64,000 bases of DNA from an uncultured Nitrospiraceae bacterium (lineage in GTDB: Bacteria > Nitrospirota > Nitrospiria > Nitrospirales > Nitrospiraceae): positions 1,216,001 to 1,280,000 of the forward strand of contig CAVSTP010000004.1 in NCBI GenBank assembly GCA_963730935.1. Direction: 5' to 3'. This document shows, one piece after another, positions 112-17,311 of the stretch. Each line of letters starts with the position of its first letter. Position 1 is the first letter of the stretch. The notes beneath the pieces were generated by a model, which did no database searches, was not told the origin of the DNA, and saw only the letters and a list, made by a program, of their open reading frames with translations. The position numbers and the translations under genes were made by a program.

Positions 112-1053
112 ATGACAGGGGACGCTACATATACCCATCTCCGATCACGCTTACACCTTGCCCTCGGATTGAACGCAATCGTCATCGCCGCCGAATTCAT
201 CGGAGGCCTCGTACTCAATAGCGTCGGATTGATCGGGGACGCCGGCCACAACCTCATCGATCAAGGCGCCTTGTTCGCCGCCCTCTACGCCCACATCTTG
301 ACGGCGCGCCCTGCCACTGAAGCGCGGACGTTCGGCTATCATCGAGCCGGCATCATCACCGCGTTGCTCAGCTCGTTCGTGTTGCTGTTCACCGCTCTGG
401 GCATCACAATGATCGGCGTGAAACGCCTGATGTATCCGGTCCCGGTCGATGGTGCTTGGGTCATGGCGATCGCCGCTCTCAGCTTTGCGGCCAATCTCGG
501 CATCGCGCTGTTGTTGCAGCACGGGGCGAAGGATGACCTCAATATCAGGAGCGCCTTCTGGCACATGCTGGCGGACGCCTGGGTCTCGCTGGGCGTGATC
601 TTGAGCGGAGGCGCGATCTTATTGACCGGCTGGACCATTCTCGATCCCCTCGTCAGTTTTCTGCTTGTCGCGGCTATTCTACGCGGCGCCTGGCCGATCT
701 TCCGCGAATCTCTGGAAATCCTGCTTGAATCCACACCGCCGGGCGTCAGTGCCTCGAACATCGCAGGCGCCATTGAAGCGATTCCTGGCGTGGACAACGT
801 TCATGATCTGCATGTGTGGGCCATCGAGCCGCGGTTGGTGATGCTGACCTGTCACGTTCTGGTCGACGAGAATCATGGCGCCGTTACGAGCGAACTGCTC
901 AAGAACATCCGCGGGCGAATCGCCGAGGATTTCGGGATTACCCACATCACGATCCAGCTCGAGACGCATTGCGCCCATAAAGATGCGGTGCATTGCGACC
1001 TGACGACCTTGGCGGGCCAACACCGATCCGATCATCTTCACGCCCATCACTAG
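112..1053 (+). CDS. czcD: Cation diffusion facilitator (CzcD/ZitB-like Zn/Co/Cd exporter)
   Basis: DAGHNLID, TFGYHR, NIRSAFWHMLAD, VHDLHVW and HITIQLE motifs; six hydrophobic segments; His/Cys-rich C-terminal tail. Confidence 0.92.
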   Translation: MTGDATYTHLRSRLHLALGLNAIVIAAEFIGGLVLNSVGLIGDAGHNLIDQGALFAALYAHILTARPATEARTFGYHRAGIITALLSSFVLLFTALGITMIGVKRLMYPVPVDGAWVMAIAALSFAANLGIALLLQHGAKDDLNIRSAFWHMLADAWVSLGVILSGGAILLTGWTILDPLVSFLLVAAILRGAWPIFRESLEILLESTPPGVSASNIAGAIEAIPGVDNVHDLHVWAIEPRLVMLTCHVLVDENHGAVTSELLKNIRGRIAEDFGITHITIQLETHCAHKDAVHCDLTTLAGQHRSDHLHAHH

Positions 1054-1060
1054 CACGCCC

Positions 1061-2026
1061 ATGGCTCACGCTCCCGTTCCCTTCTACATGCTCTGCGGAT
1101 CGCTCGGGGCGGGAAAAACGACGCTCCTCATGCGGTTGCTGGAACACTGGAAACAACGCGGACTACGCGCGGGCGTCCTCATGAACGAGGCCGGCGAAAT
1201 CAGTATTGACGGGCCTCGGGTCGGCACCATTGCCGAGCAAGTGATGAATCTCGCCGGTGGATGCGTCTGCTGCGACACCAAAGAAGATCTGTCCTGGGGA
1301 ATCGCAGAGCTTGTCCGCGATTATGGGTCTGACCTGATCGTCCTCGAGTGCTCAGGGTTGGCGGACCCGGCCGAGGTCATCGACGGCGTGACAGATCTCT
1401 ACACGGCCAGACTCGCTCAACTGGAACGGGTCATCGCGCTCCTTCACCCTATCGCCGGGACAGAAAGCCCTTCGAGCGTCTTTGTCACGGAACAGGCCAT
1501 CCGCTGCGCCGACGAGTTGATCCTGAACAAGCGGGACCTCTATGTGTCCGGCCACTGGGAACAATTCAAAGCCTCAATCCTCGCACGCAACCCGCACGCG
1601 CGCCTCTGGGAGACCACCCACGTACGCGTTGACCCCGCCGCACTTCTACAGTCCGAGGCCGGAGAGCGGCATGCGGCGACGACCAACGTCGAGTTTGGTG
1701 CGCCACGTTCCACTGCCCGTGCCCTCTATCATCCAATTGCCACGACCGTCCGCTTGGCAGGACCGTTGAACCGCAAGCGCTTCCTTTTGTGGATCCAGAC
1801 CTTACCCAAGGAAGTGGAACGCGCAAAAGGCTTCGTTCGTTTTGTAAAGGAGCCGGAGCTGCACGAATTTCAGTATGCGCCGCCCGCAGAGGCTACGGTC
1901 ACACCTGTGATGTTACTGGACGAACCCGAGAAAGCCATTGTCCTGATCGGCAGAGGGTACGACGTGGATCATTACGGGGCAGAGCTGTCGGCTTGCGTCG
2001 ATGCCATCGGCGATAGCCCGCGCTGA
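1061..2026 (+). CDS. COG0523/CobW-family metallochaperone GTPase
   Basis: Walker A GSLGAGKTT, GGCVCC metal motif, LECSG, NKRD, C-terminal RAKG (CobW_C). Confidence 0.9.
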   Translation: MAHAPVPFYMLCGSLGAGKTTLLMRLLEHWKQRGLRAGVLMNEAGEISIDGPRVGTIAEQVMNLAGGCVCCDTKEDLSWGIAELVRDYGSDLIVLECSGLADPAEVIDGVTDLYTARLAQLERVIALLHPIAGTESPSSVFVTEQAIRCADELILNKRDLYVSGHWEQFKASILARNPHARLWETTHVRVDPAALLQSEAGERHAATTNVEFGAPRSTARALYHPIATTVRLAGPLNRKRFLLWIQTLPKEVERAKGFVRFVKEPELHEFQYAPPAEATVTPVMLLDEPEKAIVLIGRGYDVDHYGAELSACVDAIGDSPR

Positions 2027-2550
2027 CGGAACTGAGGCCATTGCAGCAGGAGCCAGGCGATGCCGGCGCCGCAAAGTCCCCCGATCATCCATCCGCCCAG
2101 CACGTCCGTCACGTAATGCGCTCCAATATAGACGCGGGCCCAGCCGACGAGCCCGACGATGGGCCAACTGATCCATCCCGATCGGGGATACAACACCTGT
2201 AAAAAAGCCGCGGCTGTGGCCGTATTGATGGCATGGTTAGAGGGGAAGCTAAACGTCTTGCCGCAGGCCTGCAGCTGATGCAGGTCCGACATGCTCACAC
2301 AAGGCCGCGGACGGGCCACCAGATGTTTGATTTGCGCCCCCAGAAAATCAAAGAGTCCGATGGAGGCCCCCAAGCTGAGCCCGCCGATAACGGCCTCCCG
2401 CGGAGAGAGCCACAGCCAATAGATGCCCAGCAGAATACCCGGAAGCCACAATACGTCGGGATCCGACAAATGGAGAAACCACCAATCCATCCAGGACGAT
2501 TGCCCGGCCAATTCGTTGATCGACCGCGTCAGAAACGCATCCACGCCCAT
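1972..2550 (-). CDS. PAP2-family membrane phosphatase
   Basis: KHLVARPRP, FPSNH and ARVYIGAHYVTDV motifs; start uncertain (2550/2562/2586); 55-nt convergent overlap with the COG0523 gene. Confidence 0.88.
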   Translation of the reverse strand: MGVDAFLTRSINELAGQSSWMDWWFLHLSDPDVLWLPGILLGIYWLWLSPREAVIGGLSLGASIGLFDFLGAQIKHLVARPRPCVSMSDLHQLQACGKTFSFPSNHAINTATAAAFLQVLYPRSGWISWPIVGLVGWARVYIGAHYVTDVLGGWMIGGLCGAGIAWLLLQWPQFRQRGLSPMASTQADSSAP

Positions 2551-2623
2551 GGCGCTGACCATATAGGGTCGTCCACGGTTCGTCAACCGGCGCTCGGAAT
2601 TCCGATCCGGTCGATCCCTGAGT

Positions 2624-3052
2624 TCACTTCGTATGGAAATGGATGCGGACGGTCAGCTCACCATCGACAGGCACGTCGCCTTGCATTTGCGGATCGAAGG
2701 TCCATTTTTTGAGCGCCGCGATACCTGAGGCGGTGAGTTCACGATGCCGACAAGGCTCGAGGATCACGACGGTGACCTTGGCATCTTTCGAGACCAGCAT
2801 GCGCGCCTTCATCCAGTCATCGATCACGGTGCCGTCGAGCGCTGGCGGGATGCCTGGCCAAGGAGTGGATTTTGGAACCGGTCCACCTTGCTGGTCCTTG
2901 TTAAGCGGTAGACCGTGAACATGGACTTCCGGGAGCTCAATGATATCTTCCTGGTGGTCGCTTTCATGGGTCGCTTCGTCCCCGACGATCGCAAACGCGT
3001 TCCAAGACTGAACAAGAAGAAGGACAGAAAGTACTCTCATGACAAAGGGCAT
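2624..3052 (-). CDS. Small exported protein with TonB C-terminal-like domain
   Basis: Signal peptide ending NAFA; C-terminus ALKKWTFDPQMQGDVPV...VRIHF resembles TonB_C; directly downstream of the TonB-dependent receptor. Confidence 0.65.
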   Translation of the reverse strand: MPFVMRVLSVLLLVQSWNAFAIVGDEATHESDHQEDIIELPEVHVHGLPLNKDQQGGPVPKSTPWPGIPPALDGTVIDDWMKARMLVSKDAKVTVVILEPCRHRELTASGIAALKKWTFDPQMQGDVPVDGELTVRIHFHTK

Positions 3053-3098: not shown

Positions 3099-3170
3099 AA
3101 GGCCTCAAGGAAAAGAGGCCCCGAGCCGTACAGCGGTCGTACGTCGAGGCCTATTTCAGCATCATACTAG
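3099..3170. repeat. Palindromic intergenic element (REP/MITE-like, degenerate)
   Basis: GGCCTC (3101) can pair with GAGGCC (3115 or 3146); internal CGTAC..GTACG; ends TTTCAGCATCATACTAG; family link recalled, not searched. Confidence 0.35.
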
Positions 3171-5584
3171 AAAAACCATTGAGCCCGAAAGAAGAACGAC
3201 CGTGGCATCCCCGCATGCGCGACCCCGAGGCCGATGCTACCTTCCCCCGTATTGTAGAAGTACTGATGATCGAGCAAGTTGATGACGTCGAATCCTACTA
3301 ACAGCTTTTGCTGATCCCACGGCAGATTGAACACGTGCGTAATTGAGGCGTTGTAAATGGTCCATGACTCGAAGTGCGAGGAGTTTGTGAACGCATCCTC
3401 GCTGTCCGAAGTCCGTAAGCCCGACCCATAGAGCATTTGGCCGGACACCGTTGTGTTGAATGGAAACCGGTACGCCACAACGGCCGAACTCGTCATCGTT
3501 TGCGAGTGGTCGCAGAACACGCCTCCCGCGGTATTGATATCCGTAATCTCCTTCGTATCCAGCAGGTAATTCCCCGACTGCAATCCGCTCCCCTTGCACC
3601 GGCCCCACGCCACGTTGCCGCGCGCGCTGAGCTCGTCAGTAATCTGTACTTTGAGGGCCCCGTCGATGCCCATTTGATAGCCCCACTGGAACGCGAAAAA
3701 ATTCAACATTGGCGTCGAGCCGAATTGGCCCGCATCGGACTGGAAATGGGTTCGCTTGTAATAGGCCGCCAATTCCAGGGTGGCCCATTTGCTGAGCGCG
3801 TGGTAACTGCCCACCTCAAAATAGTGAGAGCGCTCCGCCCGGGGATTAAATCCGGTTGGATCCTCCGGTTGCGCCGTCGTTCCCTCGAGATTCACTTTGG
3901 TAAACGCGATCTGCTCAACATTCGGCGGCGTGAACAGTCGGCCATAGTAGGCATGAAACACGTTCGCCCGATTCAACTTATAGGTAACGCCGAGGCGTGG
4001 GCTCACCTGCCCTTCATTGTAGAAGCCTTGAATGATGTCCCCCCGCAGGCCGAGGTTCACAGTCAATGCATCAGTCGGGCTCCACTGGTCCTGGATCCAG
4101 AATTCCTCGCGCGTCTGTACGTTGGTATTGGCACCGGTTTGCGAGAGCACCGGTCCCACGGGGAGGCCGGTCCCTGAGTCGACAGCGAAGTCAAACAACT
4201 GGAATTGATTCTGCGCGTGCGTGTACTCGAACTGAAACCCGGTCTTTACGAGATGTTGTCTGTTGGGAACCCACGTATGATCGAGCCTTGTGCCGAGTGC
4301 GTATGCCTTCCGCTCCTGACTTGCTGTCTGCGTGTCATAAGCCAGCGCGTTGAACGGATCGGTAGTGAAGTTCGCATAGGAATTCCGAAGATAGCCGGAC
4401 AGCTGAAAGAAGTTCTCAGCATTCACGTCATGGCGCCAGACGAGGTGGGTGTATTGAGAATTCTCCTTCTGGTTCTGGTTAACGGCCTGAGAAGCCACTG
4501 GTGAGAACGTGGGGTCCTGCGCTTGAAGGAGCGGCAGCGTGTCTCCGTTCACTTCTAACCCCGGGCTAGTCGGAATCTGATACTTCGCCACTGCATTCAA
4601 AAACACCCAACTGAAGCTGTTGCGGTTGTCATGCTGGTAGTCACCCCGCAGATAGGTCTGATTACGCTCGTGCTGATCGTGAAATACCGAATGGCCGAGC
4701 GTGGGCGGTTCGATGCCTCGATTCGTCGTGGTATAGCTGTTCAGGACATAAAATCGAACCTTCTCTCCGATCGTGCCTCCGTACTCGAACGAGGGGTTCA
4801 CTGTCTCGTTGGAGCCGCCAAAAATTTGGGCCGAGCCGAACCCAGGACGGGTTCCGCTCTTGCTGGTAATATCGACCAGAAGTGCGGTCTTGTTGCCGTA
4901 CTGTGCCTCCATGCCGCCGAGGATGATATCAGCCCGCTCCCACATGCGGGGCGACATGACATCGGTGAAGGTTGAGCTGACCCCTTGGGGAATCGGCACC
5001 CCGTCGATCCGGAACTGCTGGTTCGCATGGTCCTGTCGGATGTGGGTCTGTCCCAAGGCACCATAGGCCACACTGGGAACCGTCAGGAGCACGTCGGCCA
5101 CCGTGTTATTGTTGCCCCGTGGAAGAACCTCAACATCCTTTCGGCTTAATTGATAGGTTTCGCTCGAGGCCTTGTATTGGATCGCCGGAAGCGGCGACAC
5201 GATCTCTAAAGCGATCTCCCGCGTCACCGCAAGGGTGAGCGAGACGGGCGAAAGCGGCATTATCCCGATCTTCACCACGACGTATTCGCTCCGGAAGGTG
5301 TCCCGAACGGCACTGATCGAATAGGTGCCAGACTCCGGGACCCTAACGCGGAACTCGCCGGCCTGATTCGTGACCCCCTGAGCTACCATGGTGCCTTCTT
5401 GATCGCGCACCTGCACGATGGCCTGATCCACACGCCGAAGATCCTGATCCTGGACCGTCCCGATAATCGTCTGGGTGAGGTCACTGTCCGCCGCGTAGGT
5501 GAACGAGGCCGGCCCCTGAGGGACGTAGATGCTTCCCACTAACAAGAAGATACCGAATGAACGCGATAACGCTGCCCGCCGCAT
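3167..5584 (-). CDS. TonB-dependent receptor with N-terminal carboxypeptidase-regulatory-like domain, probable metal uptake
   Basis: Signal peptide, GTVQDQ..TNQAGEF domain, plug IDGVP, SPRLG, C-terminal PRSFFFRAQWFF; ATG 5584 has GGAGG 6 nt upstream (track start 5605). Confidence 0.9.
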   Translation of the reverse strand: MRRAALSRSFGIFLLVGSIYVPQGPASFTYAADSDLTQTIIGTVQDQDLRRVDQAIVQVRDQEGTMVAQGVTNQAGEFRVRVPESGTYSISAVRDTFRSEYVVVKIGIMPLSPVSLTLAVTREIALEIVSPLPAIQYKASSETYQLSRKDVEVLPRGNNNTVADVLLTVPSVAYGALGQTHIRQDHANQQFRIDGVPIPQGVSSTFTDVMSPRMWERADIILGGMEAQYGNKTALLVDITSKSGTRPGFGSAQIFGGSNETVNPSFEYGGTIGEKVRFYVLNSYTTTNRGIEPPTLGHSVFHDQHERNQTYLRGDYQHDNRNSFSWVFLNAVAKYQIPTSPGLEVNGDTLPLLQAQDPTFSPVASQAVNQNQKENSQYTHLVWRHDVNAENFFQLSGYLRNSYANFTTDPFNALAYDTQTASQERKAYALGTRLDHTWVPNRQHLVKTGFQFEYTHAQNQFQLFDFAVDSGTGLPVGPVLSQTGANTNVQTREEFWIQDQWSPTDALTVNLGLRGDIIQGFYNEGQVSPRLGVTYKLNRANVFHAYYGRLFTPPNVEQIAFTKVNLEGTTAQPEDPTGFNPRAERSHYFEVGSYHALSKWATLELAAYYKRTHFQSDAGQFGSTPMLNFFAFQWGYQMGIDGALKVQITDELSARGNVAWGRCKGSGLQSGNYLLDTKEITDINTAGGVFCDHSQTMTSSAVVAYRFPFNTTVSGQMLYGSGLRTSDSEDAFTNSSHFESWTIYNASITHVFNLPWDQQKLLVGFDVINLLDHQYFYNTGEGSIGLGVAHAGMPRSFFFRAQWFF

Positions 5585-5686
5585 TCTCCGCCTCCGAAAA
5601 CTCACCGGCGGACGTCAGCCGGATGAACAAAGTCATCGTCGGACCAACACGGGTCCGATCAATGAGTAAGGCGAAACCTGACGCTG

Positions 5687-5995
5687 TCAGGCATGAGGAG
5701 GTGCGCGAGAAGGACCGATTGAGGGGAATTCGATCGAAAAGAGTTGCGCGGGTGCAGGAGCTTCATGGGAACCGACGAGCTCGAACGTGGAACAGGGGGG
5801 GCCACCAACATCAAGCGAGCCGGACGTATGGTGTTGCACCCATTGGCAGAGGTCGGTATCGGAGTGTTCGTGTCCATCCGTATCAGCCGCAGCCAGCTCA
5901 TGATGGACATCCTGGGCTACTGCAAAAGGAGCCAGTGCCAGCAGAAGCAGGATGAGGCCTACAGAAAGCCCGCGCGTGACGAAAGAATGACTCAT
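5687..5995 (-). CDS. DUF2946-like His-rich leader protein with C-terminal RAPP arrest motif
   Basis: Hydrophobic N-terminus, DVHHE..GHEHSDTDLCQWVQHH, Pro-rich tail ending GPSRAPPHA*; directly upstream of the receptor. Confidence 0.75.
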   Translation of the reverse strand: MSHSFVTRGLSVGLILLLLALAPFAVAQDVHHELAAADTDGHEHSDTDLCQWVQHHTSGSLDVGGPPCSTFELVGSHEAPAPAQLFSIEFPSIGPSRAPPHA

Positions 5996-6008
5996 GGTGC
6001 GGCCATTG

Positions 6009-6036
6009 ACTATCACAAGGCTCCAAAGCCTGTCAA
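6009..6036 (-). promoter_or_regulatory. Putative sigma70 promoter for the uORF-receptor unit
   Basis: TTGACA-N16-GATAGT with extended TG; palindrome AGGCT-N4-AGCCT in the spacer. Confidence 0.5.
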
Positions 6037-7252: not shown

Positions 7253-8038
7253 ATGCTCATCGATACCCATACCCATCTGGACGACACTCGCTACGATGCG
7301 GACCGCGAAGCGACGATCGAGCGGGCACGCCAGGCAGGGGTGGGTGCATTCGTGACGATCGGGTGCGATCTCGCCACCAGCCGGTCCGCCGTCACGCTCG
7401 CCGATCGCCATCCTGACATCTACGCCTCGATCGGCGTTCACCCGCATGAGGTGAAACACATCAGCGATGGGTGGTACGACGAACTACGCCGCCTCGCCCA
7501 ACATGAGAAGGTGGTGGCATACGGCGAGATCGGACTCGATTATCACTATAATCACTCGGCGCCCAAGGAGCAGCGCGAGCGGTTTCGCGAACAAGTTCAG
7601 CTGGCACGCGAACTCCGCCTTCCCGTCATCATTCACACGAGAGAGGCGCAGGAAGATACGATCAACATCCTCAAGGAAGAAAAGGCGTCAGAAGTCGGCG
7701 GAGTCTTCCACTGCTTTTCGGGAGACACCTGGCTGGCGAAGGATGCATTGGATTTGGGATTCTACCTTTCCTTTTCCGGAATTCTGACGTTCAACAACGC
7801 GACGATGCTGCGGGAGATCGCCAAACAGACGCCGCTGGATCGCGTGCTTATTGAGACCGACTGCCCTTACCTCACACCGGTTCCCCACCGTGGCAAACGC
7901 AACGAGCCGGCCTTCGTCTCGCACGTCGCCAAACAGCTCGCCGACATCCATTCTGACCTTTCGTTGGCACAGATCGAACAAGCCACGACAGACAATGCCC
8001 ACCGCCTATTCAGCAAGATGCGTGAGCGTACTGCCTAG
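7253..8038 (+). CDS. tatD: TatD-family DNase
   Basis: DTHTH, GVHPH, GEIGLDY, IHTRE, FHCF, ETDCPYL, RGKRNEP. Confidence 0.95.
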   Translation: MLIDTHTHLDDTRYDADREATIERARQAGVGAFVTIGCDLATSRSAVTLADRHPDIYASIGVHPHEVKHISDGWYDELRRLAQHEKVVAYGEIGLDYHYNHSAPKEQRERFREQVQLARELRLPVIIHTREAQEDTINILKEEKASEVGGVFHCFSGDTWLAKDALDLGFYLSFSGILTFNNATMLREIAKQTPLDRVLIETDCPYLTPVPHRGKRNEPAFVSHVAKQLADIHSDLSLAQIEQATTDNAHRLFSKMRERTA

Positions 8039-8059
8039 TCGGCACGGGCTCGCGCGTGC

Positions 8060-8581
8060 CTAGAATCGCTTAAGCTGTCGGCCGCGGCGGCGAAGCGCCT
8101 TGGGAAGTTTTCGAGGATTGCCTTTCTTCTCCGGCCCGCGCCGGGGTGCCAAATCTTCATCCACGGCCAATTCCTTGTGGGGCATCGGACCTTGCGAGAA
8201 GGACTTCACTTGGAGTTTCTGGGCAAACTCCGGCGCCCTCATGATCAACGCTCCTTGTGCCTGCGCCGCGCGGATCACTTCGTGATCGGACGTCACGACC
8301 GCGCACGCCGCTCCATATTCCTGCGCCAGCCGCTCGATCACCTGGTCGGCCTTCTCGCCCCGCTTTGAATAGATCACCTGGACACCGGCGCGGTGCTCAC
8401 GTCCTTCGAGCGACTGTCCCCGTTGCCATCCGTCAAAGACAACGGTCAGCGCATGACCCTTCCGATGTCGATAGCCCGCCAGCAGTCGCAGCACGGATTC
8501 CCGCGCCATTTCGGAGAACGGATTTGCACCGGACCAGCTCATTAGGGCCAACAGGTTGTAGCCGTCAATAATCACGTGCAT
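8060..8581 (-). CDS. NYN-domain (YacP/Rae1-like) nuclease
   Basis: IIDGYN, VVFDG, ADQVI, VVTSD; basic C-terminal tail. Confidence 0.85.
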   Translation of the reverse strand: MHVIIDGYNLLALMSWSGANPFSEMARESVLRLLAGYRHRKGHALTVVFDGWQRGQSLEGREHRAGVQVIYSKRGEKADQVIERLAQEYGAACAVVTSDHEVIRAAQAQGALIMRAPEFAQKLQVKSFSQGPMPHKELAVDEDLAPRRGPEKKGNPRKLPKALRRRGRQLKRF

Positions 8582-8592
8582 GACGATGAGAA

Positions 8593-8621
8593 ACCCTACG
8601 CGAGGCGATAGGTGCTGTCAA
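8593..8621 (-). promoter_or_regulatory. Putative sigma70 promoter of the NYN gene (near-leaderless)
   Basis: TTGACA-N17-TAGGGT ending 11 nt before ATG 8581. Confidence 0.45.
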
Positions 8622-8716
8622 CCGACCCACAGGCACCGTTCAAAACTCCGCTCCCCTTGACAACCCTCGGGACATCTGAGAGATAGATATATCTTCTGCC
8701 GTCCCCGTGGAAACCC

Positions 8717-9976
8717 ATGCCCCCTGCTCGCTGGCGTGTAATCTCTCTAGTCGTGCTGCTGGGACTGTTCAGTCTCGATGGACTGTTGTGGCTTCAGCCT
8801 GTTAAGGCCGCGTCGCAAGACCAGCGGGATGAGTCGCCGTCATCCAAACGATCCCGCCGCTCGAAGGTCAGCCTCCTTACACTTCCACCTGCGATGATCC
8901 AGAATCTGAGGACTGCCTTCTCGCCAGAGTCATTTCGGTTGGTCCTTGATCTCGACCGCAAGACACGGGTCAAGAAGCACCTCCCATCTCGGGAAGACGG
9001 CTTGGTCGTCGAAATCCCTCACGCGGCGTTAAGCAAGTCTGCGCAAACGAAAATCGCGCAGGGATCGCTCGACGGCCGGTTCATCGTCAGGCAAACGCCC
9101 GACGACTCCGTGACGGTCACCCTGCCGAACGGATCGTTCCAGAGGTATGCCTTGTTTTCACTGACGAATCCTCCGCGACTCGTCGTTGACGTGGTCCCTT
9201 CAGGCGTCCAGCCTTCCGCACCGACGCTGGATATGATTGAGCCTGCGGCAGCACCAACTCCTCCGCCGCAACCGCTACCGCCGCGGGCCAAGGCCTTCAC
9301 AACCATCGTGATCGACCCCGGACACGGCGGGAGAGATCCTGGCGCCCATGGGTACCGCGGCACCGAGGAGAAGGACATTACCCTGAAGGTGGGATTGAAG
9401 CTGCGGGAGCTCCTGAAAAAGGATCCGGGCGTGCGCGTCCTGATGACGCGGGAACGGGACGTGTTCGTCGAACTCGAAGACCGTGCACGGTTCGCCAACG
9501 GCAATGAAGCCGACCTCTTTGTCTCGATCCACGTCAACTCGCACCCTCAACGGTCCGTGCGAGGGATTGAAATCTACCATTTCGGGGAGGCCAAGGATCA
9601 GCGGGCCCTGGAGCTGGCGGCCCGAGAAAACGGCACTCCGCTGAGCAGCACCGGCATGGGATGGGAATATTTGGTTGCCGATCTCTTGACGACCAAGAAG
9701 ATCGAAGCGTCATTGGAGCTGGCCTGGACCACCAAGGAGGCCATGATTACCCACCTGAACGGGCAGTATGCGCTCGTCGATCATGGCGTCAAGACCGCGC
9801 CGTTCTACGTTCTCCGCTTTACCAGCATGCCGAGCATCCTGGCAGAAATCGCCTACATTTCGAATGCCGCCGAGGAGGAGCTTTTGAGGACCGGTACCTT
9901 TGTCACACGCGTCGCTGAATCCCTTCATGAGGGAGTAGCCGCCTTTTTGGCCGCTTCAAAACAGCCGGCGCGATAA
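8717..9976 (+). CDS. amiC: N-acetylmuramoyl-L-alanine amidase (AMIN + Amidase_3)
   Basis: Signal/TM, NPPRLVVD, IDPGHGGRDPGA, FVSIHVN, LAAREN, PSILAE. Confidence 0.92.
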   Translation: MPPARWRVISLVVLLGLFSLDGLLWLQPVKAASQDQRDESPSSKRSRRSKVSLLTLPPAMIQNLRTAFSPESFRLVLDLDRKTRVKKHLPSREDGLVVEIPHAALSKSAQTKIAQGSLDGRFIVRQTPDDSVTVTLPNGSFQRYALFSLTNPPRLVVDVVPSGVQPSAPTLDMIEPAAAPTPPPQPLPPRAKAFTTIVIDPGHGGRDPGAHGYRGTEEKDITLKVGLKLRELLKKDPGVRVLMTRERDVFVELEDRARFANGNEADLFVSIHVNSHPQRSVRGIEIYHFGEAKDQRALELAARENGTPLSSTGMGWEYLVADLLTTKKIEASLELAWTTKEAMITHLNGQYALVDHGVKTAPFYVLRFTSMPSILAEIAYISNAAEEELLRTGTFVTRVAESLHEGVAAFLAASKQPAR

Positions 9977-10004
9977 TGCGCCACGCCCTGCTCACCGCGC
10001 CGCT

Positions 10005-10781
10005 ATGCCGACCGTGAGACTGGTCCTCGAATACGATGGTTCCCGTTATGCCGGCTGGCAGCGCCAACCCGATCAGCCCACCATCCAAGAGGCCATCGAA
10101 ACCGCCCTGTTTCAGCTGACCCAAGAAACCGTGTCGGTGATCGGCGCGGGACGTACCGACGCGGGCGTGCACGCACTCGGTCAGGTGGCAAGCTTCCGCA
10201 TTGAGCGGAAATGGACGTCCCACGAGTGGCTGCGAGGGTTGAACGCCAGGCTTCCCGAAGATATTGCCGTGCGATCGGCGGCGATAGCGTCCGACGACTT
10301 TCACGCTCGATATGCCGCCCGTGGGAAGCTGTACGAGTACCGCATTATGAATCGCGGGGAACGGCCCGCCATCGATCGCACCTATCTCTGGCACATCCAT
10401 AAGCCCTTGGACGAAACCGCCATGAAGCGAGCCGCCACTCATCTCGTCGGCACACACGACTTCTCCTCGTTCGAAGGCACCCTCACCGACAACGAAGACC
10501 CGATCTGCGACCTGCGGCAACTGTCTCTCGATCGACACGGGGACATGATGACGATTCACGCCTACGCAGATCGTTTCTTGAAACATATGGTCCGTGCGAT
10601 CGTCGGGACGCTCGTTGAGGTGGGCCATGGTAAACGGGCGCCGGAGGCCCTCGCGACGATCCTGTCCGCGAGGGATCGTACGGCTGCCGGCAGAACCGCG
10701 CCACCGCACGGTCTGTTCCTCCTCCACGTCGACTACGACGGCGAGGAGGCACAGAGGAGCAACACTTCACTTGTTCAATAG
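10005..10781 (+). CDS. truA: tRNA pseudouridine(38-40) synthase
   Basis: YDGSRYAGWQRQ, GAGRTDAGVHA, FHARY, GTHDFSSF, FLKHMVR, TAPPHGL. Confidence 0.97.
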   Translation: MPTVRLVLEYDGSRYAGWQRQPDQPTIQEAIETALFQLTQETVSVIGAGRTDAGVHALGQVASFRIERKWTSHEWLRGLNARLPEDIAVRSAAIASDDFHARYAARGKLYEYRIMNRGERPAIDRTYLWHIHKPLDETAMKRAATHLVGTHDFSSFEGTLTDNEDPICDLRQLSLDRHGDMMTIHAYADRFLKHMVRAIVGTLVEVGHGKRAPEALATILSARDRTAAGRTAPPHGLFLLHVDYDGEEAQRSNTSLVQ

Positions 10782-10826
10782 TGTGAGCGGGGCGAGGGTG
10801 AGAAAAGAAAGACGAGGAACGGAAGG

Positions 10827-11477
10827 TCAGGGGGAGGAAGGCTCGTCGCGGTTCTCGAGCTTCTTGCGAAGTTCGATGAGTTCTTGCTCGAGGGCCAGGA
10901 AACGGTCGCTGATCGGGTCCGGAAGATTGCTATGGTCCATGGTCGCATCGGGGAGCCGCTCGCCCTGCGTCTTAATGACCCTGGCGGGCACGCCGATGAC
11001 GGTCGAGTTCGCGGCGACGTTCTTGAGGACGACGGAATTCGCTCCGATCTTCACGTTGTCACCGATCGTGATCCCTCCGAGGATCTTGGCCCCCGCGCCG
11101 ACCACCACATGATTGCCCAGCGTCGGATGGCGCTTCCCGCGCTCCTTTCCCGTTCCACCGAGCGTCACCCCTTGGAAGAGCGTCACGTAATCCCCGATTT
11201 CAGCGGTTTCCCCAACGACAACCCCCATGCCGTGATCGATGAAGAACCCGGTGCCGATGCGGGCTGAGGGATGGATCTCGATCCCGGTCAGCCAGCGAGC
11301 AACCTGGGAAATGGCGCGGGGTACGAAGGGAATGCCGTAGAACTTCAGCCAATGGGCGACGCGATAGGCCATCAATGCATGAAAGCCGGCATAGGTCAGA
11401 ATGACTTCCAGCTTGCTGGTGGCTGCAGGATCCCGGTCAAACACGGCTTTGAAGTCTTGTCGAATCGCGTTCAGCAT
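10827..11477 (-). CDS. cysE: Serine O-acetyltransferase
   Basis: [37 protein letters not shown]. Confidence 0.96.
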
Positions 11478-11496
11478 GTCGGTGATTGTACGATGC

Positions 11497-11970
11497 TCAG
11501 ACCGGTTCAATCAAACAAACGGCGTGGGCGATCATCCCTTCTTCCCTGCCCACCGCATCCAGTCCCTCTCCGCTCTTCACCTTCACGTTGACCCTGTCGG
11601 GGTCGATGCCCGCAGCCTCGGCCATTTTTTTCTGCATCGCGGCAAGATGCGGCGCGAGTCGCGGGGCCTGCGCAACAATGACGGTATCGATATTGCCGAC
11701 GCGGTAGCCCTTCGCCTTGAGCTTGCTCATCACGTCTTCCAGCAGCTTGAGGCTTGAGATCCCTTTATATCGCGAATCCGAGCTCGGATAGTGCCGTCCG
11801 AGATCGCCCTCTCCCATTGCTCCAAGCAAGGCATCGCAGACCGCGTGGACGAGCACATCGGAGTCTGAGTGTCCGAGCAGGCCCTTGCTGTGCGGAATGT
11901 CGACGCCGCCCAGAATGAGCTTGCGCCCCGGCGCCAGCGGATGCACGTCATAGCCATAGCCAATGCGCAT
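11497..11970 (-). CDS. ispF: 2-C-methyl-D-erythritol 2,4-cyclodiphosphate synthase
   Basis: [31 protein letters not shown]; upstream extension of the track ORF lies within ispD. Confidence 0.96.
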
Positions 11971-11999
11971 GAGATGCCCCTTGTATTCTGCTGGCCGCG

Positions 12000-12716
12000 T
12001 TACGGCTTGCGGCCCGCCCGCGAAGCCAAGATGGCTTCGCCGATGACGAGATCTTCCGGCCTTGTCACTTTGATGTTCTCTCCGCTGCCTTCGACCACCC
12101 TGACCGGATGGCCCATCCATTCCATAAGAAACGCATCGTCCGTCGCGGCCAGCCCTTCGGCCTGCGCTTTCCGATGCGCCTCCTCGAGCCAGTCTCGACG
12201 GAAGGCTTGCGGCGTCTGGGCGAGCCATAACGGGTTGCGGTCGATCGTGCGTTCGATGACGCGATCCGCGCCAACTTGCTTGACGGTATCCCGCATGGGC
12301 AAGGCAATAATGGCCGCGCCGTCGACCGCTGCGGCTTCGACGACCTGTCTCACCATCGTTTCTGTCACACAGGGCCGAACGGCATCATGGATCACGACGA
12401 GGTGGACTCCCTCCCCTACAACGGCCAACGCCCGGCGAACTGAATCCTGCCGTTCTTTTCCGCCCGCCACCACCTGTGTGACCTTGGTAAAACCGTGTGC
12501 TTCGACGATTTCCGTTCGACAATAGTGCAGATCCGCTTCGGGAACCGCAAGAATCACCGCCTCGATGATCGGAGAAGATTGAAAGACACGAAGGGAATAG
12601 ACGAGGAGTGGCAGCCCTCCGAGCGGGCGAAACTGCTTGCGGACGGCCCCTCCCAGCCGGAGGCCCAAGCCCGCGGCCGGGATGAGTGCAACGGTACGAC
12701 GAGGCTCCGGTGCCAT
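12000..12716 (-). CDS. ispD: 2-C-methyl-D-erythritol 4-phosphate cytidylyltransferase
   Basis: PAAGLGLR, GGKERQDSV, HDAVRP, AQTPQAF, TDD, NIKVT; GGAGG upstream of ATG 12716. Confidence 0.95.
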   Translation of the reverse strand: MAPEPRRTVALIPAAGLGLRLGGAVRKQFRPLGGLPLLVYSLRVFQSSPIIEAVILAVPEADLHYCRTEIVEAHGFTKVTQVVAGGKERQDSVRRALAVVGEGVHLVVIHDAVRPCVTETMVRQVVEAAAVDGAAIIALPMRDTVKQVGADRVIERTIDRNPLWLAQTPQAFRRDWLEEAHRKAQAEGLAATDDAFLMEWMGHPVRVVEGSGENIKVTRPEDLVIGEAILASRAGRKP

Positions 12717-12773
12717 GGGGGGCCTCCGCGCCATGGCTATGGGCACGGCCGCATGACGAACCCGAAGCGGCAG

Positions 12774-13799
12774 CTATCCACGCGCGACCTGCATCTCCTC
12801 TCGCTCGGTCTCTTCCTTCAGCCGGGTGAAGATCATGCGTCCGGCAGTCGTCTGCAGCACGCTGGTGACGACGACGTCCACATTCTTTCCGATGTAGCGG
12901 CGGGCATTGTCGACCACGATCATGGTGCCGTCGTCGAGATAGGCGACACCCTGCCCCGCTTCCTTGCCTTCTTTAAGCACGAACACCCGAATGGCCTCCC
13001 CCGGCAGAACGACCGGCCGCAATGCGTTGCACAGTTCGTTGATGTTGAGCACGCGAATGCCCTGCAACTCGGCGACCTTGTTAAGGTTCAAATCGTTCGT
13101 GACAATCTTCGCGTTCATCTTCTTGGCCAGCACAATCAGTTTGGCATCCACTTCTTTGACGTGTGGAAAATCTTCGTCGATGATCCGGACGTCCACATCA
13201 CCCATTTTCTGGATCTTGTTCAGGATATCAAGGCCGCGTCGTCCCCGCGCGCGCTTTAACGAGTCCGAGGAGTCGGCAATGTGTTGCAGCTCGTCCAGGA
13301 TGAAATGGGGCACGAGGAAGGTCCCTTCGAGAAATCTCGTTTCACAGAGATCGGCAACCCGTCCGTCAATGATGACGCTCGTGTCGAGGACCTTGGGACA
13401 GACGGTGTTGCCATCCAGCTCAAAGAGTTTCTGCTCGGGGCTTGGCAGCTTCTCCTTGCCGAACCTGGCGCCCAGCACGAGGCCGAGATAAGGGAATCCG
13501 AGAAGAAAGACGAGGCCGCCGATATGGAAGAGGAAGGTCTGGACGTCAAAAATCTCGCCGCCCACCCATTCGACGAGCCCCGTCAACACCAGGCCCGCCG
13601 CCAATCCTGCCGCGCCTCCGACAATGATGCCGAATGAGAGGTTGTGTAGGGCATATTCTCCGGCGACGATCAATCCGCCGGTCACCGCTCCGATCCCGAA
13701 CCCGTACATCCAATACGAGGCGCTGGCTCCATCCGCTTTGATAAAGAGCGCCATTCCCGCCAATGCACTGAGAAGGACAAATATGGCTCGCGATACCAT
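12774..13799 (-). CDS. PIN/TRAM-domain membrane protein (YacL-like)
   Basis: N-terminal TMs, [46 protein letters not shown]. Confidence 0.93.
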
Positions 13800-13816
13800 A
13801 CCTTCACCTCCTCTCG

Positions 13817-15337
13817 CTAAGGACGTAACGTTAAATAAATCGTCTGGCCTTTCCGTTTCAACAGTAGCAGGACCGCCTGATCTTTGGCCAGACCGGACAC
13901 CGCCCGCTCATAGGACTTGATCGAATTGACAGGTTTGCGGTTCACCTCGAGCACAATATCGCCTTCTCTGACGCTCATTTCCTCTGCCGTACTCCCGGGC
14001 TTGACCCGCACGATGACCACGCCCCGTTCGCTGGGCTTGATGCCGTACCGAGCAGCCAGTTCCTCGTTCAACTCACGGACATCGATATCGGACAGCACAC
14101 CGGTCGGGGCGGTGGACTCGCCGTTGTCCTCGGGGCCCGCCTGACCGAGGGACTTCGGCTGCTCCACGATCGTCACCTCGATGGTCTTGATCTTCTTTTC
14201 CCTGATCACCTTGATCGGCACCTTGCGTCCGATCGGCGTCTGCGCCACCGCGTTCCGAAGATGCGTCGGTGAATCCATGGGTTTGCCGTCGTATTCCGTG
14301 ATCACGTCGGCGCGCTCAAACCCCGCCTTTTTGGCGGGACTGTCGTCCATCACGTCGCTCACCAACACTCCCTTTGTGTCCGTCAGTCCGAACTGGGAAG
14401 CAAGTTCTGGGGTTAGTTCTTGAATCGCGACGCCGAGCCAGCCGCGCACAACTTTTCCGGTCTTGACCAGCTGGTCCATGATCGAGCGGGCCAGATTACT
14501 GGGCACGGCAAAACCGATTCCCATGTTGCCGCCGCTCTGGCTGAAGATCGCCGTATTGATGCCGACCAGTTCGCCGCGCACGTTCACCAACGCGCCCCCG
14601 GAATTGCCGGGATTGATTGCGGCATCGGTTTGAATGAAGTCTTCGTACTCCGCGATGCCCATGCTGGCCCGCCCCACGGCGCTGACGATGCCCATCGTCA
14701 CGCTCTGCGTCAGCCCGAAGGGGCTGCCGACTGCGAGGACGAATTCACCCACCTCAAGCTGATCCGAATCGGCAAACGGAATGGTCGACAATCCCGTCGC
14801 CTCGATTCTCACAATCGCCACGTCGGTCTTGGTGTCGGTGCCGATCAATTTGCCCTTGAACTCACGCTTGTCCGAGAGAATCACCCGGATATCGTCGGCC
14901 TTGTTGACGACATGGTTGTTGGTGATGATCAGGCCGCTCGAGTCGACGATCACGCCTGAGCCCTGCCCCCGCTCTTTTCGCTCACGATGCGGCTGCTCGC
15001 GCTTGAAGAATTCATCACCGAAGAATTTGCGAAAAAAGGGGTCATCGAAGGGGGAGCTTTGCGGCCCGTCACCCGACTTTCCGGACCGGCTCGCGGCGAT
15101 GTTGACCACGGCGGGCTTGACGGTTTTGGCGATCTCGACAAAGCTCTTGGCAGTGCCGCCAGTCACGGGTTGCTGAGGAACCGTGGCCACAGGGCGGACC
15201 ACTCCTTCCGTCGGCGAATCGTGTCCCGCCGTCCCACGCGGCAGCCAGCCGAGATCAGACGCTGCAACGACGCCGATGACGGCGCCCAATGCGAGGAGCA
15301 GATACGGAAGCGCCCGTGAACGGCCGAGTGTCATCAT
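13817..15337 (-). CDS. degP: DegP/DegQ periplasmic serine protease with two PDZ domains
   Basis: [28 protein letters not shown]. Confidence 0.94.
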
Positions 15338-15343
15338 GAATCC

Positions 15344-16267
15344 TTATTGAATTTCACCCGCATAAATCCCCATGACCGTCTGTAAAAACTTCACCGCTTC
15401 CGCCTTCGGACGCTGAAACGAGTTCCGCCCGATGATGCTGCCGAATCCGCCGCCCTCTCGGATGGCCCGAGCCTCCTCGAAGACATTCTTGTCCTCGCTC
15501 TTCGCCCCGCCAGAGAAAATGACGATGCGTCGGCCGTCGAACGAGCTCTGAACCACATGCTTGACGCGCTCAGCGAGCGTCTTAATGGGAACCTGGGTGG
15601 ATTCATATACTTTCTTGGCTGCAGCCTGCTCGAGATGGGCCGACGGAAGCTTGACCTTGATGATATGCGCACCCAATTGGGCCGCAATTTGGGCCGCATA
15701 AGCCACCACATCCATCGCGGTCTCCCCTTCTTTGCTGATGGCCGACCCACGGGGATAGGACCACACCACAACGGCAAGCCCGCCTTCCTTCGCTTCTTCC
15801 GCGATCGCGCGCAACTGCTCGTACATCACGTTGCAATGAGCCGATCCGGGGTAGATCGTGAAGCCGACGGCCACGCAACCGAGACGGAGTGCGTCCTTGA
15901 CGCTGCCGGTAACCGAGGGCAGCGGATCCTTGTCGTCATGCAGGACGTCGTGGTTGTTCAGCTTCAAAATCAGGGGAATCTGCCCGGCGAACTGGCTTGC
16001 ACCGGCCTCCAAAAATCCCAGCGGCGCCGCATAGGCATTGCAACCGGCGTCAATGGCCAATTGAAAATGATACAGCGGGTTGTAGCCGGGCGGGTTGGGT
16101 GCAAAGCTCCTCGCTGGGCCGTGCTCGAAACCTTGATCGACCGGCAGGATGACCAACTTTCCGGTACCGGCCAATTTTCCGCTTCGCAGCAACCGCGCAA
16201 TGTTCGTTTTTGTTCCTGCGTTGTCGCTCGTATAGTAACTCAAAATTTCTTGTACTTGATCACCCAT
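15344..16267 (-). CDS. fbaB: Class I fructose-bisphosphate aldolase
   Basis: ILPVDQGFEHGP, GFTIYPGS, WSYPRG, IIKVK, IGRNSFQRP. Confidence 0.93.
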   Translation of the reverse strand: MGDQVQEILSYYTSDNAGTKTNIARLLRSGKLAGTGKLVILPVDQGFEHGPARSFAPNPPGYNPLYHFQLAIDAGCNAYAAPLGFLEAGASQFAGQIPLILKLNNHDVLHDDKDPLPSVTGSVKDALRLGCVAVGFTIYPGSAHCNVMYEQLRAIAEEAKEGGLAVVVWSYPRGSAISKEGETAMDVVAYAAQIAAQLGAHIIKVKLPSAHLEQAAAKKVYESTQVPIKTLAERVKHVVQSSFDGRRIVIFSGGAKSEDKNVFEEARAIREGGGFGSIIGRNSFQRPKAEAVKFLQTVMGIYAGEIQ

Positions 16268-16297
16268 CTCGACTCTCCGGTTCGTCGATCACACCCG

Positions 16298-17311
16298 TTA
16301 TGAGAGTACCGTTGTCCCCTGTATGTACGATTCGGCGTCCCTCACATCGTCGGCGCTGCCGATGATGAGCGGGACCCGTTGATGCAGCTTTTTCGGCTCG
16401 ATGTCGAGGATGCGGGTCACGCCGGTGCTCGCTCTGCCGCCTGCCTGCTCGACGACCATCGCCATGGGATTGGCCTCGTACAGCAATCGCAATTTTCCTT
16501 CCGGTTTGTTGATCTCGCCTGGATACAAATAGATCCCCCCGCCGAGAAGGAGCCGGTGCACGTCGGCCACGAGACAACCCGAATAGCGGCTGGTGTAGGG
16601 ACGGCCTGCCGCCTTGTCGGGCTTCTTGAGCGAATCAACGTATCGCTTGGTTCCGTCCGGCCATTTTTCGTAATTGCCTTCATTCACGGCGTATACTTTT
16701 CCACGCGAAGGCATCTTGATGCCGGGATGAGACAATTGATACTCCCCGACGTTGGGATCGAGCGTAAACCCGTAAACGCCCTTGCCGGTCGTAAAGACGA
16801 GCATCGTGCTCGGCCCGAACAGAAAATAGCCGGCCGCCAGCTGATGGGTGCCTTTCCTGAGCAAATCGTTGTCTCCCGGCGGCTGATCCTGATGCTGGTG
16901 CTCGATGATCGAAAAGATCGATCCCAGCGGCATGTTGACGTCGGTGTTCGACGAGCCGTCCAATGGATCAAAGAGCACCATGTAGGGTGCGGGTCTGCCC
17001 GGCGAGTCGACAAAGACCGGCTTTTCCATTTCTTCCGAGGCCAAGGCGCCGGCCACGCCGTCCCGCTGCAAGACCTCAATAAACGTATCATTAGCAATCT
17101 GATCCAGCTTTTTGACGGATTCACCCTGGACGTTCGTCTCGCCGGTGATCCCCAGCATATTGAGCAGTCCGGCAATCCGCAGGTCGCGGGCGAGGGTCTT
17201 TCCGACCAGCCCAATGGCGGAGAGCAGCGCGGTCAAGGATCCGGCCCCGCCGAGCGAAGCGGGAGGATTGGCCATGAGAAATTGTTCGACGGTGAGCGGC
17301 CGCTGCGACAT
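16298..17311 (-). CDS. fbp: Class 1 fructose-1,6-bisphosphatase
   Basis: NVQGE, ASEE, FDPLDGSSN, RYSGCLVADVHR, KLRLLYEANP. Confidence 0.96.
   Translation of the reverse strand: MSQRPLTVEQFLMANPPASLGGAGSLTALLSAIGLVGKTLARDLRIAGLLNMLGITGETNVQGESVKKLDQIANDTFIEVLQRDGVAGALASEEMEKPVFVDSPGRPAPYMVLFDPLDGSSNTDVNMPLGSIFSIIEHQHQDQPPGDNDLLRKGTHQLAAGYFLFGPSTMLVFTTGKGVYGFTLDPNVGEYQLSHPGIKMPSRGKVYAVNEGNYEKWPDGTKRYVDSLKKPDKAAGRPYTSRYSGCLVADVHRLLLGGGIYLYPGEINKPEGKLRLLYEANPMAMVVEQAGGRASTGVTRILDIEPKKLHQRVPLIIGSADDVRDAESYIQGTTVLS

Follow-up and report, generated by a model that had tools for sequence, protein, structure and literature searches.

A RAPP-ending leader peptide of Nitrospirales as a candidate zinc-responsive arrest switch ahead of a TonB-dependent receptor

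Results

A 102-residue leader ORF precedes a TonB-dependent receptor gene in an uncultured Nitrospiraceae bacterium. We propose, with moderate confidence, that the leader peptide likely stalls its own ribosome at a C-terminal RAPP motif and that translation of the receptor is thereby likely maintained under scarcity of a metal, probably zinc. Plain coordinates below refer to the window, i.e. the whole stretch of 64,000 nucleotides that was analysed.

By analogy with the copper leader CruR, the ribosome would halt with Pro99 and Pro100 in the P and A sites. It would then cover the Pro-Pro and tail codons, which would otherwise be paired with the Shine-Dalgarno (SD) region of the receptor gene, and the receptor would be made. 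In the stalled state a His/His/Asp/Cys cluster would be positioned 43 to 68 residues from the peptidyl-transferase centre, either spanning the Sec channel or just beyond the tunnel. On binding zinc, this cluster would fold, pull the chain and release the stall; after ribosome run-off the helix would reform and the importer would be shut off. Such a scheme would join the logic of CruR (metal frees the stall and uptake goes off) to an output of the CutF/SecM type (unmasking of the ribosome binding site). The direction, in which low zinc would cause the stall and turn the receptor on, is deduced from the nature of the targets, which are uptake and zinc-sparing genes, and from analogy.

Leader gene, promoter and neighbourhood

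The leader ORF (P0001, 5687..5995, minus strand) was delimited from its translation, its homologues and its conservation. The hydrophobic N-terminus, the His/acidic tract and the RAPP located two codons ahead of the stop, all described in the original prediction, are present in the translation. Residues 1-27 (5915..5995, minus strand) resemble a signal peptide on inspection and finish with an A-x-A end, here A-V-A (residues 25-27), whose Ala27 is found in 149/157 leaders. The tract reads DVHHE..GHEHSDTDLCQWVQHH and belongs to a putative metal site delimited by conservation, residues 29-56 (5828..5911, minus strand), comprising H31, H32, D38, D40, H42, H44, D48, C50, W52 and H56. There follows a linker (5708..5827, minus strand) whose sequence varies while its length, as counted from Cys-to-Arg distances, is almost constant; it leads to the arrest-type motif RAPP (5696..5707, minus strand, read 5707-5696), after which come His, Ala and the stop. 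The Pro-Pro codons, CCUCC at 5701-5697, are complementary to the SD sequence of the receptor. Two spaced cysteines without CxxC had also been announced. Both are seen (Cys50 and Cys68), with the correction that only Cys50 is conserved, position 68 being Cys in 9/157 leaders only. Cys50 stands in the context C-Q-W-V-Q-H-H, with no CxxC and no CxxxC, and 157/157 leaders have V, L, I or M at position 53. The AlphaFold model of the leader (pTM 0.36) consists of two helices and coil, the metal-site segment forming a helix-loop-helix at low confidence; Foldseek returned no match for this model, which carries no weight as evidence.

The best sigma-70-type promoter candidate (10/12) lies at 6007..6036 (minus strand), with TTGACA at 6036-6031 and an extended -10 at about 6016-6007, and its predicted start site would leave a very short 5' leader. 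A similar -35/N18/TA pattern was found upstream of 100/144 leader-receptor loci, the same loci from which the pattern had been derived, and in 0/159 coding control windows. In 74 of the 100 loci carrying it, an in-frame ATG is located 5-14 nt past the -10 element. Given this promoter-like site just upstream and the proximity of the ATG, the leader is likely the first and nearly leaderless gene of its transcript.

The receptor is, as originally stated, the first gene past the leader, its ATG (5584) being located 102 nt past the leader stop. It encodes 805 residues (3167..5584, minus strand; PF00593, PF07715, PF13620), in which Pfam detects the TonB barrel (E 1.4e-15) and the plug (3.9e-5), and a search of solved structures retrieved no relative. 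The 102-nt intergenic region (5585..5686, minus strand) is predicted to be structured; it contains the SD GGAGG (5595-5591) as well as another anti-SD stretch (5676-5668), and has no Rfam match up to E 1. Behind the receptor are found a short TonB C-terminal-domain protein conserved at this place (2624..3052, minus strand; PF03544 at E 5.3e-5 and synteny) and an often conserved membrane phosphatase of the PAP2 family (1972..2556, minus strand; PF01569).

The original prediction had placed the leader beside CDF and COG0523 genes. These genes are real and both convergent: a CDF transporter (112-1053, plus strand; best equivalog ZitB, below cut-off) and a COG0523 GTPase (1061-2026, plus strand). 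Their synteny is kept in many Nitrospiraceae. They are neighbours and not members of the transcript, because they lie on the opposite strand at 3.7-5.6 kb, and we dropped them as the main evidence on the metal. Elsewhere in the window, from about 19600 to 64000, a long minus-strand cluster of polysaccharide/glycosyltransferase type (labels from N-termini) has a GC content of 0.46-0.55, as compared with 0.57-0.61.

Pairing of the leader end with the receptor Shine-Dalgarno region

The first Pro codon of the motif is CCT in 139/198 leaders; the share of CCT is lower among linker prolines (150/569, 26%) and across the genome (14%). Near the motif, T occupies 45% and G 9% of the four-fold sites, the upstream values being 21% and 30%. 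For 72 representatives, we compared the binding of each leader end to its own SD with that of swapped pairs: own pairs outbind swapped ones (0/20000 permutations, for the tail alone too) in the expected register only (60/20000, against 7387-17113 for shifted registers), the controls giving 9770/20000 for the upstream linker and 105/20000, i.e. some covariation, for the stretch past the start codon; as kin are not independent, these permutation counts are overstated. The footprint of a stalled ribosome lowers the cost of opening the ribosome binding site by >2 kcal in 101/164 loci, as compared with 29/164 for a control footprint. These 164 loci replace an earlier ensemble test on 124 loci, from which a start-codon rule had excluded the present locus and where motif-SD pairing was weakly raised in receptor loci (0.25, synonymous controls 0.18). 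An RNAalifold run on a 41-sequence alignment of loci yielded no consensus pair.

At the present locus, the stalled footprint lowers the opening cost by 1.3 kcal, vs 1.0 kcal for the control, and 4/5 close relatives show gains of 0.0-0.9 kcal or a change in the wrong direction. The weak gain here is attributed to the second anti-SD stretch, which sits inside the intergenic region. Thus, the family-wide covariation of the Pro-Pro and tail codons with the SD region of the receptor points to translational unmasking, with a weak effect at this locus.

The same zinc-responsive stall could instead act, as in CruR, through Rho-dependent termination between leader and receptor. The leader 3' end is indeed rich in C over G, both here (23-27 C vs 9-12 G per 60 nt in the segment 5800-5651) and family-wide (0.39-0.43 vs 0.18). 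A Pfam search detects Rho in this genome, and the weakness of the unmasking at this locus would fit such an output. Against it, structure is predicted in the intergenic region, and a covariation with the SD that is specific of one register would be unexpected from a rut site. We regard Rho termination as the unlikely one of the two outputs, which may also coexist.

Metal specificity of the leader family

We collected the first gene located behind 201 leader hits. It is the same receptor in 145 of them, a share that is inflated because the loci were chosen among the best matches of this ORF; a porin with ZnuA/ZnuC-like genes after it in 21; a ZnuA-like gene in 1; a COG0523 gene in 10; and an S14 gene in 4. 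The remaining 20 hits precede another gene, are broken or meet a contig end. The COG0523 leader operons start with a Fur-family gene. Among their products are the long S14, a ZIP transporter, ZigA, which passes the NCBIfam threshold of 600 bits with 615 and 627, additional copies of dihydroorotase and HemB, and 'all3515 Zur-repressed' proteins. Such a set marks zinc starvation. For the binding proteins of leader operons, MntC scores near AztC/ZnuA, all below cut-off. No copper gene comes first behind a single-Cys leader among the annotated downstream genes. We also retrieved 18 plasmid-borne homologues of the receptor, about 30% identical, and inspected 8 of them: 2 belong to zinc-type clusters with Zur-type boxes (box from PMC4176598), 1 lies behind DUF2946, 1 lies directly behind nikR, which speaks against zinc, and 4 are uninformative.

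Zinc is thus most likely the metal of the leader, judging from these genes and from the operator described below. Of the Zn/Ni/Co sensing initially suggested, the non-copper context stands and the choice narrows to zinc, on the strength of the paralogue context and the operator instead of the CDF and COG0523 neighbours.

It appears quite unlikely that the leader is a switch for nickel, cobalt, manganese or copper. This reading would draw on the His-only CutF-like clusters tied to HupE/UreJ (Ni/Co; PMC9973294), on the one receptor homologue found behind nikR, on the closeness of the MntC and AztC/ZnuA scores, none above cut-off, and on the apparent derivation of the family from leaders with C-x-W-x-C, of which this genome has two close to a Cu-type ATPase. 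It is opposed by ZigA, the long S14, ZIP, all3515 and the Zur-type box, which all indicate zinc, by the lack of a copper gene first behind annotated single-Cys leaders, and by the position of the nikR of this genome, on a different contig from the leader.

Several loci are of note for their organisation. One zinc-type cluster (L033:5494-12303) contains three leaders, in the order Fur-family gene, leader, leader, receptor, leader, S14, ZigA. In another locus (L057:6449-7405), an ORF that looks transposase-like by inspection separates the leader from the porin-znu operon. The ZnuA-like ABC operon of the present genome (G000:C2:427954-430569) has no RAPP leader in front.

Zur-type operator and Zur-like repressor

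Upstream of the COG0523 leader operons, a palindrome (A/T)TGCAA-N5-TTGCA(A/T) is found at the -10 region. It matches the Desulfovibrio Zur box ATGCAACNNNGTTGCAT, itself a prediction (PMC545781). Counted on loci that were not used in defining it, the palindrome is present in sister-family genomes having a Zur-like gene before 22/23 leader-receptor loci and 20/20 leader-porin-znu loci. It is absent from all 35 leader-receptor loci in Nitrospiraceae without a Zur-like gene, this genome included, and from 159/159 control windows. In Nitrospiraceae genomes having a Zur-like gene, it is missing before the receptor in 14/16 loci. The proteobacterial Zur box was also tried upstream of the leaders and gave no real signal (16/196 at 3 mismatches). 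Because the palindrome precedes the leader-receptor unit in 22/23 loci of the sister family, this unit is there, by its predicted operator, a member of a zinc-type regulon.

The Zur-like protein was detected at E <1e-40 in 57/72 sister-family genomes and 20/73 Nitrospiraceae, leaving 53/73 sampled Nitrospiraceae genomes where it was not found; its name relies on context and operator only, as solved structures do not separate this Fur-family protein from Fur or PerR. The genome studied here (99.9% complete) has one Fur-family gene, 31% identical to the Zur-like protein, and no box before the leader. In Nitrospiraceae, either the receptor would have come under zinc control by the leader, or it would have left zinc control. 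In this genome, where neither a Zur-like repressor nor its operator was found, zinc control of the importer would lie mainly with the leader.

Conservation of the leader

The leader protein has 1119 homologues. The search of representative proteins reached 84 proteins, essentially all of the leader's own family, and no Pfam or NCBIfam family was matched by the leader. In the phylum sample of 301 genomes, 62 have a match, all from one order, and no match was found outside the Nitrospirales. A broader profile detects leaders in 127/151 genomes of the order and in 73/73 sampled Nitrospiraceae, two of these weakly. R[AG]PP is located at most 12 residues from the stop in 116/121 sequences (120 best hits and the query). 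The loci analysed contain 202 distinct leader hits, of which 198 keep RAPP (154), RGPP (38) or RPPP (6), with a tail of mostly 2-5 residues. The Cys-to-Arg distance is 47 in 157/202, 48 in 17/202 and 46 in 9/202 hits, i.e. 46-48 in 183/202, spacings of 84-94 being mis-picks of the pattern. In a set of 56 diverse leaders, H32, H44, D48, W52, R97, P99 and P100 do not vary, and C50 is kept in at least 90%. The features whose conservation had been proposed as a check (His, Cys, RAPP and synteny) are largely kept in relatives, save Cys68.

This pattern of conservation bears on the idea that the exported peptide is a small periplasmic zinc-binding or shuttling protein of the zinc regulon, in which RAPP would couple translation or report Sec export without any sensing of metal. 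The cleavable-looking signal, the highly conserved acidic and His-rich segment and the Zur-type box found before the gene in the sister family would suit such a protein. The linker, which keeps its length and not its sequence, rather bears the mark of a nascent-chain ruler; moreover, paralogues head genes for cytoplasmic proteins (COG0523, S14) and none of the leaders was seen to precede a sec or yidC gene. We therefore hold this possibility as very improbable.

Core codon differences at positions 1/2/3 amount to 0.155/0.108/0.528, and this bias towards position 3 is that of a protein-coding sequence. By contrast with conservation, the motif alone tells nothing above chance in this genome: in a six-frame count of short ORFs that combine a hydrophobic stretch with the motif close to their end, no excess was observed, with RAPP counted 1, RGPP 2, RSPP 1 and RPPP 0 times and six control tetrapeptides 0-2 times each. 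A chance ORF between genes, for which these equally frequent control tetrapeptides and the lack of a Pfam or NCBIfam family might plead, is refuted by the number of homologues, the position-3-biased variation and the fixed synteny. The leader ORF is a genuine conserved gene, the case for which stands on conservation and not on motif counts in one genome.

Relationship to known arrest leaders

The original prediction viewed the ORF as a RAPP leader of the CruR/CutF type devoid of CxxC. It is borne out in that such a leader is conserved and fixed in front of the receptor. It also suggested a kinship with DUF2946, and here the profile search was negative: PF11162 does not match P0001 up to E 10, nor anything at the leader's place in the genome. 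Weak PF11162 matches, with E values of at most 1 and 0.0074 for the best, occur in 19/56 members of the leader family. Of the named Atlas clusters, the one nearest to the leader carries DUF2946 on 16% of its members (score 0.94). The alignment of the leader profile with a DUF2946 protein covers the C-terminus only (probability 7.7). Directly in front of a Bradyrhizobium homologue of the receptor lies an annotated DUF2946 gene with CxxC and RGPP. Judged from these comparisons, the leader is akin to DUF2946 and a distant relative of CruR and CutF, and is not a member of DUF2946 by Cys pair, Pfam score and copper context.

CruR (Bp2923, DUF2946/PF11162) of Bordetella pertussis arrests in vitro at RAPP, the P and A sites being occupied by the two prolines (PMC12992588). 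Its spacing to RAPP matters, the first Cys being 49 residues from Arg; copper relieves the stall, and the signal peptide is dispensable (PMC9426467). When our leader is compared with CruR as described in these two articles, both are small, of exported type and first in their operon, with a TonB-dependent transporter downstream. They share a C-terminal RAPP a few residues ahead of the stop and at a fixed distance from the Cys site, a C-rich 3' end and, likely, the same direction, in which metal would turn uptake off. They differ in that our leader has C-Q-W-V in place of CxxC, a first Cys-to-Arg distance of 47 vs 49, no PF11162 match, a zinc instead of a copper context, and an intergenic region of 102 nt vs 162 nt. 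Moreover, SD masking is favoured here by the family evidence, whereas Rho termination is the output in CruR.

The statement that CruR and CutF both possess a CxxC is correct for CruR only, as CutF of Rhodobacter capsulatus has a CxxxC (PMC9973294). CutF resembles our leader by its metal motif and its Pro-rich end. Its Sec signal, which it needs (PMC9973294), has a putative counterpart in the signal-like N-terminus of our leader, and its stem-loop shielding the SD, which the stalled ribosome opens (PMC9973294; bioRxiv 10.1101/2025.02.05.636593), would have one in the predicted pairing of the leader end with the receptor SD. In the same two sources, CutF combines CxxxC with PPP and depends on EF-P, whereas our leader has Gln at the second Cys position. 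There, a stall caused by Cu turns a detoxifying oxidase on, whereas the family studied here precedes uptake and zinc-sparing genes. The nature of these targets implies the opposite direction. No multicopper oxidase is found behind the leader here.

Among the CutF-like proteins, clusters 14 and 17 are His-only, precede HupE/UreJ (Ni/Co) and were proposed as non-copper sensors (PMC9973294). Our leader shares with them a His-rich sequence without a Cys pair and departs from them by one conserved Cys and by zinc-regulon genes instead of HupE/UreJ. The string 'Nitrospir' is absent from the main text of PMC9973294 and from those of its supplementary files that were searched. With the ApdA/ApdP/SecM class, as presented in PMC12992588, the leader has in common an RAPP-type arrest motif and a putative export signal; it differs by its conserved metal-type site and by its location, which is not ahead of sec or yidC genes. 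The same article describes RAPP uORFs ahead of TonB receptors as universal in Gram-negative bacteria.

In the articles cited here, CruR and CutF are the metal-sensing arrest leaders that were tested, and both respond to copper (PMC9426467, PMC9973294). Non-copper CutF-like leaders, for Ni/Co, are already predicted in print (PMC9973294). Our searches of the open-access literature retrieved neither a zinc version of such arrest leaders nor a description of a zinc regulon in Nitrospira; the supplements of PMC9973294 and PMC12992588 may list the family. More tentatively, a zinc-sensing arrest-peptide family might run zinc control in Nitrospirales, under a Zur-type repressor in one family and as the sole zinc switch on the importer in most Nitrospiraceae; it might have arisen from C-x-W-x-C leaders that traded the second Cys for His/Asp ligands, with Pro-Pro codons serving as anti-SD. 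We consider this broader picture possible, with rather less confidence than an even chance would warrant. A zinc-responsive leader would explain how zinc uptake could still be regulated in widespread nitrifiers without a detected Zur-like repressor, such as the 53 Nitrospiraceae genomes mentioned above. It would also mean that the arrest-leader scaffold can be retuned to other metals via a ligand swap.

Leader variants

Two further His-rich leaders are found in series in this genome (G000:C2:193011-193598 and 189723-190025; L068), with C-x-W-x-C and RGPP. Their Cys-to-motif distances, 46 and 47, match that of the leader studied here. One is located before a TonB protein and the other before a different TonB-dependent receptor; a Cu-type P-ATPase lies downstream, and nikR is about 15 kb off. 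Together with the single-Cys leader of the same genome, they offer a clean natural comparison.

Cys-free leaders, in which D-x-H-A-W-L stands for D-x-C-x-W, occur before S14-ZigA or another TonB receptor (L064:15672-15986, L067:4861-5211, L118, L120 and L122) and form a His-only step of the family. In the sister family (L106, L107, L108, L110, L114 and L059), a leader subtype ..SDFDLCDW.[QH]IQTTGS..RAPP is followed by a gap of 560-620 nt, where no long ORF was seen directly behind the leader, and then by a membrane protein of 700 residues. Finally, one locus (L069:9467-9730) has a frameshifted leader with the receptor missing behind it; elsewhere in the same genome, a second leader is intact and precedes a gene without annotation and one for a CDF transporter (L046).
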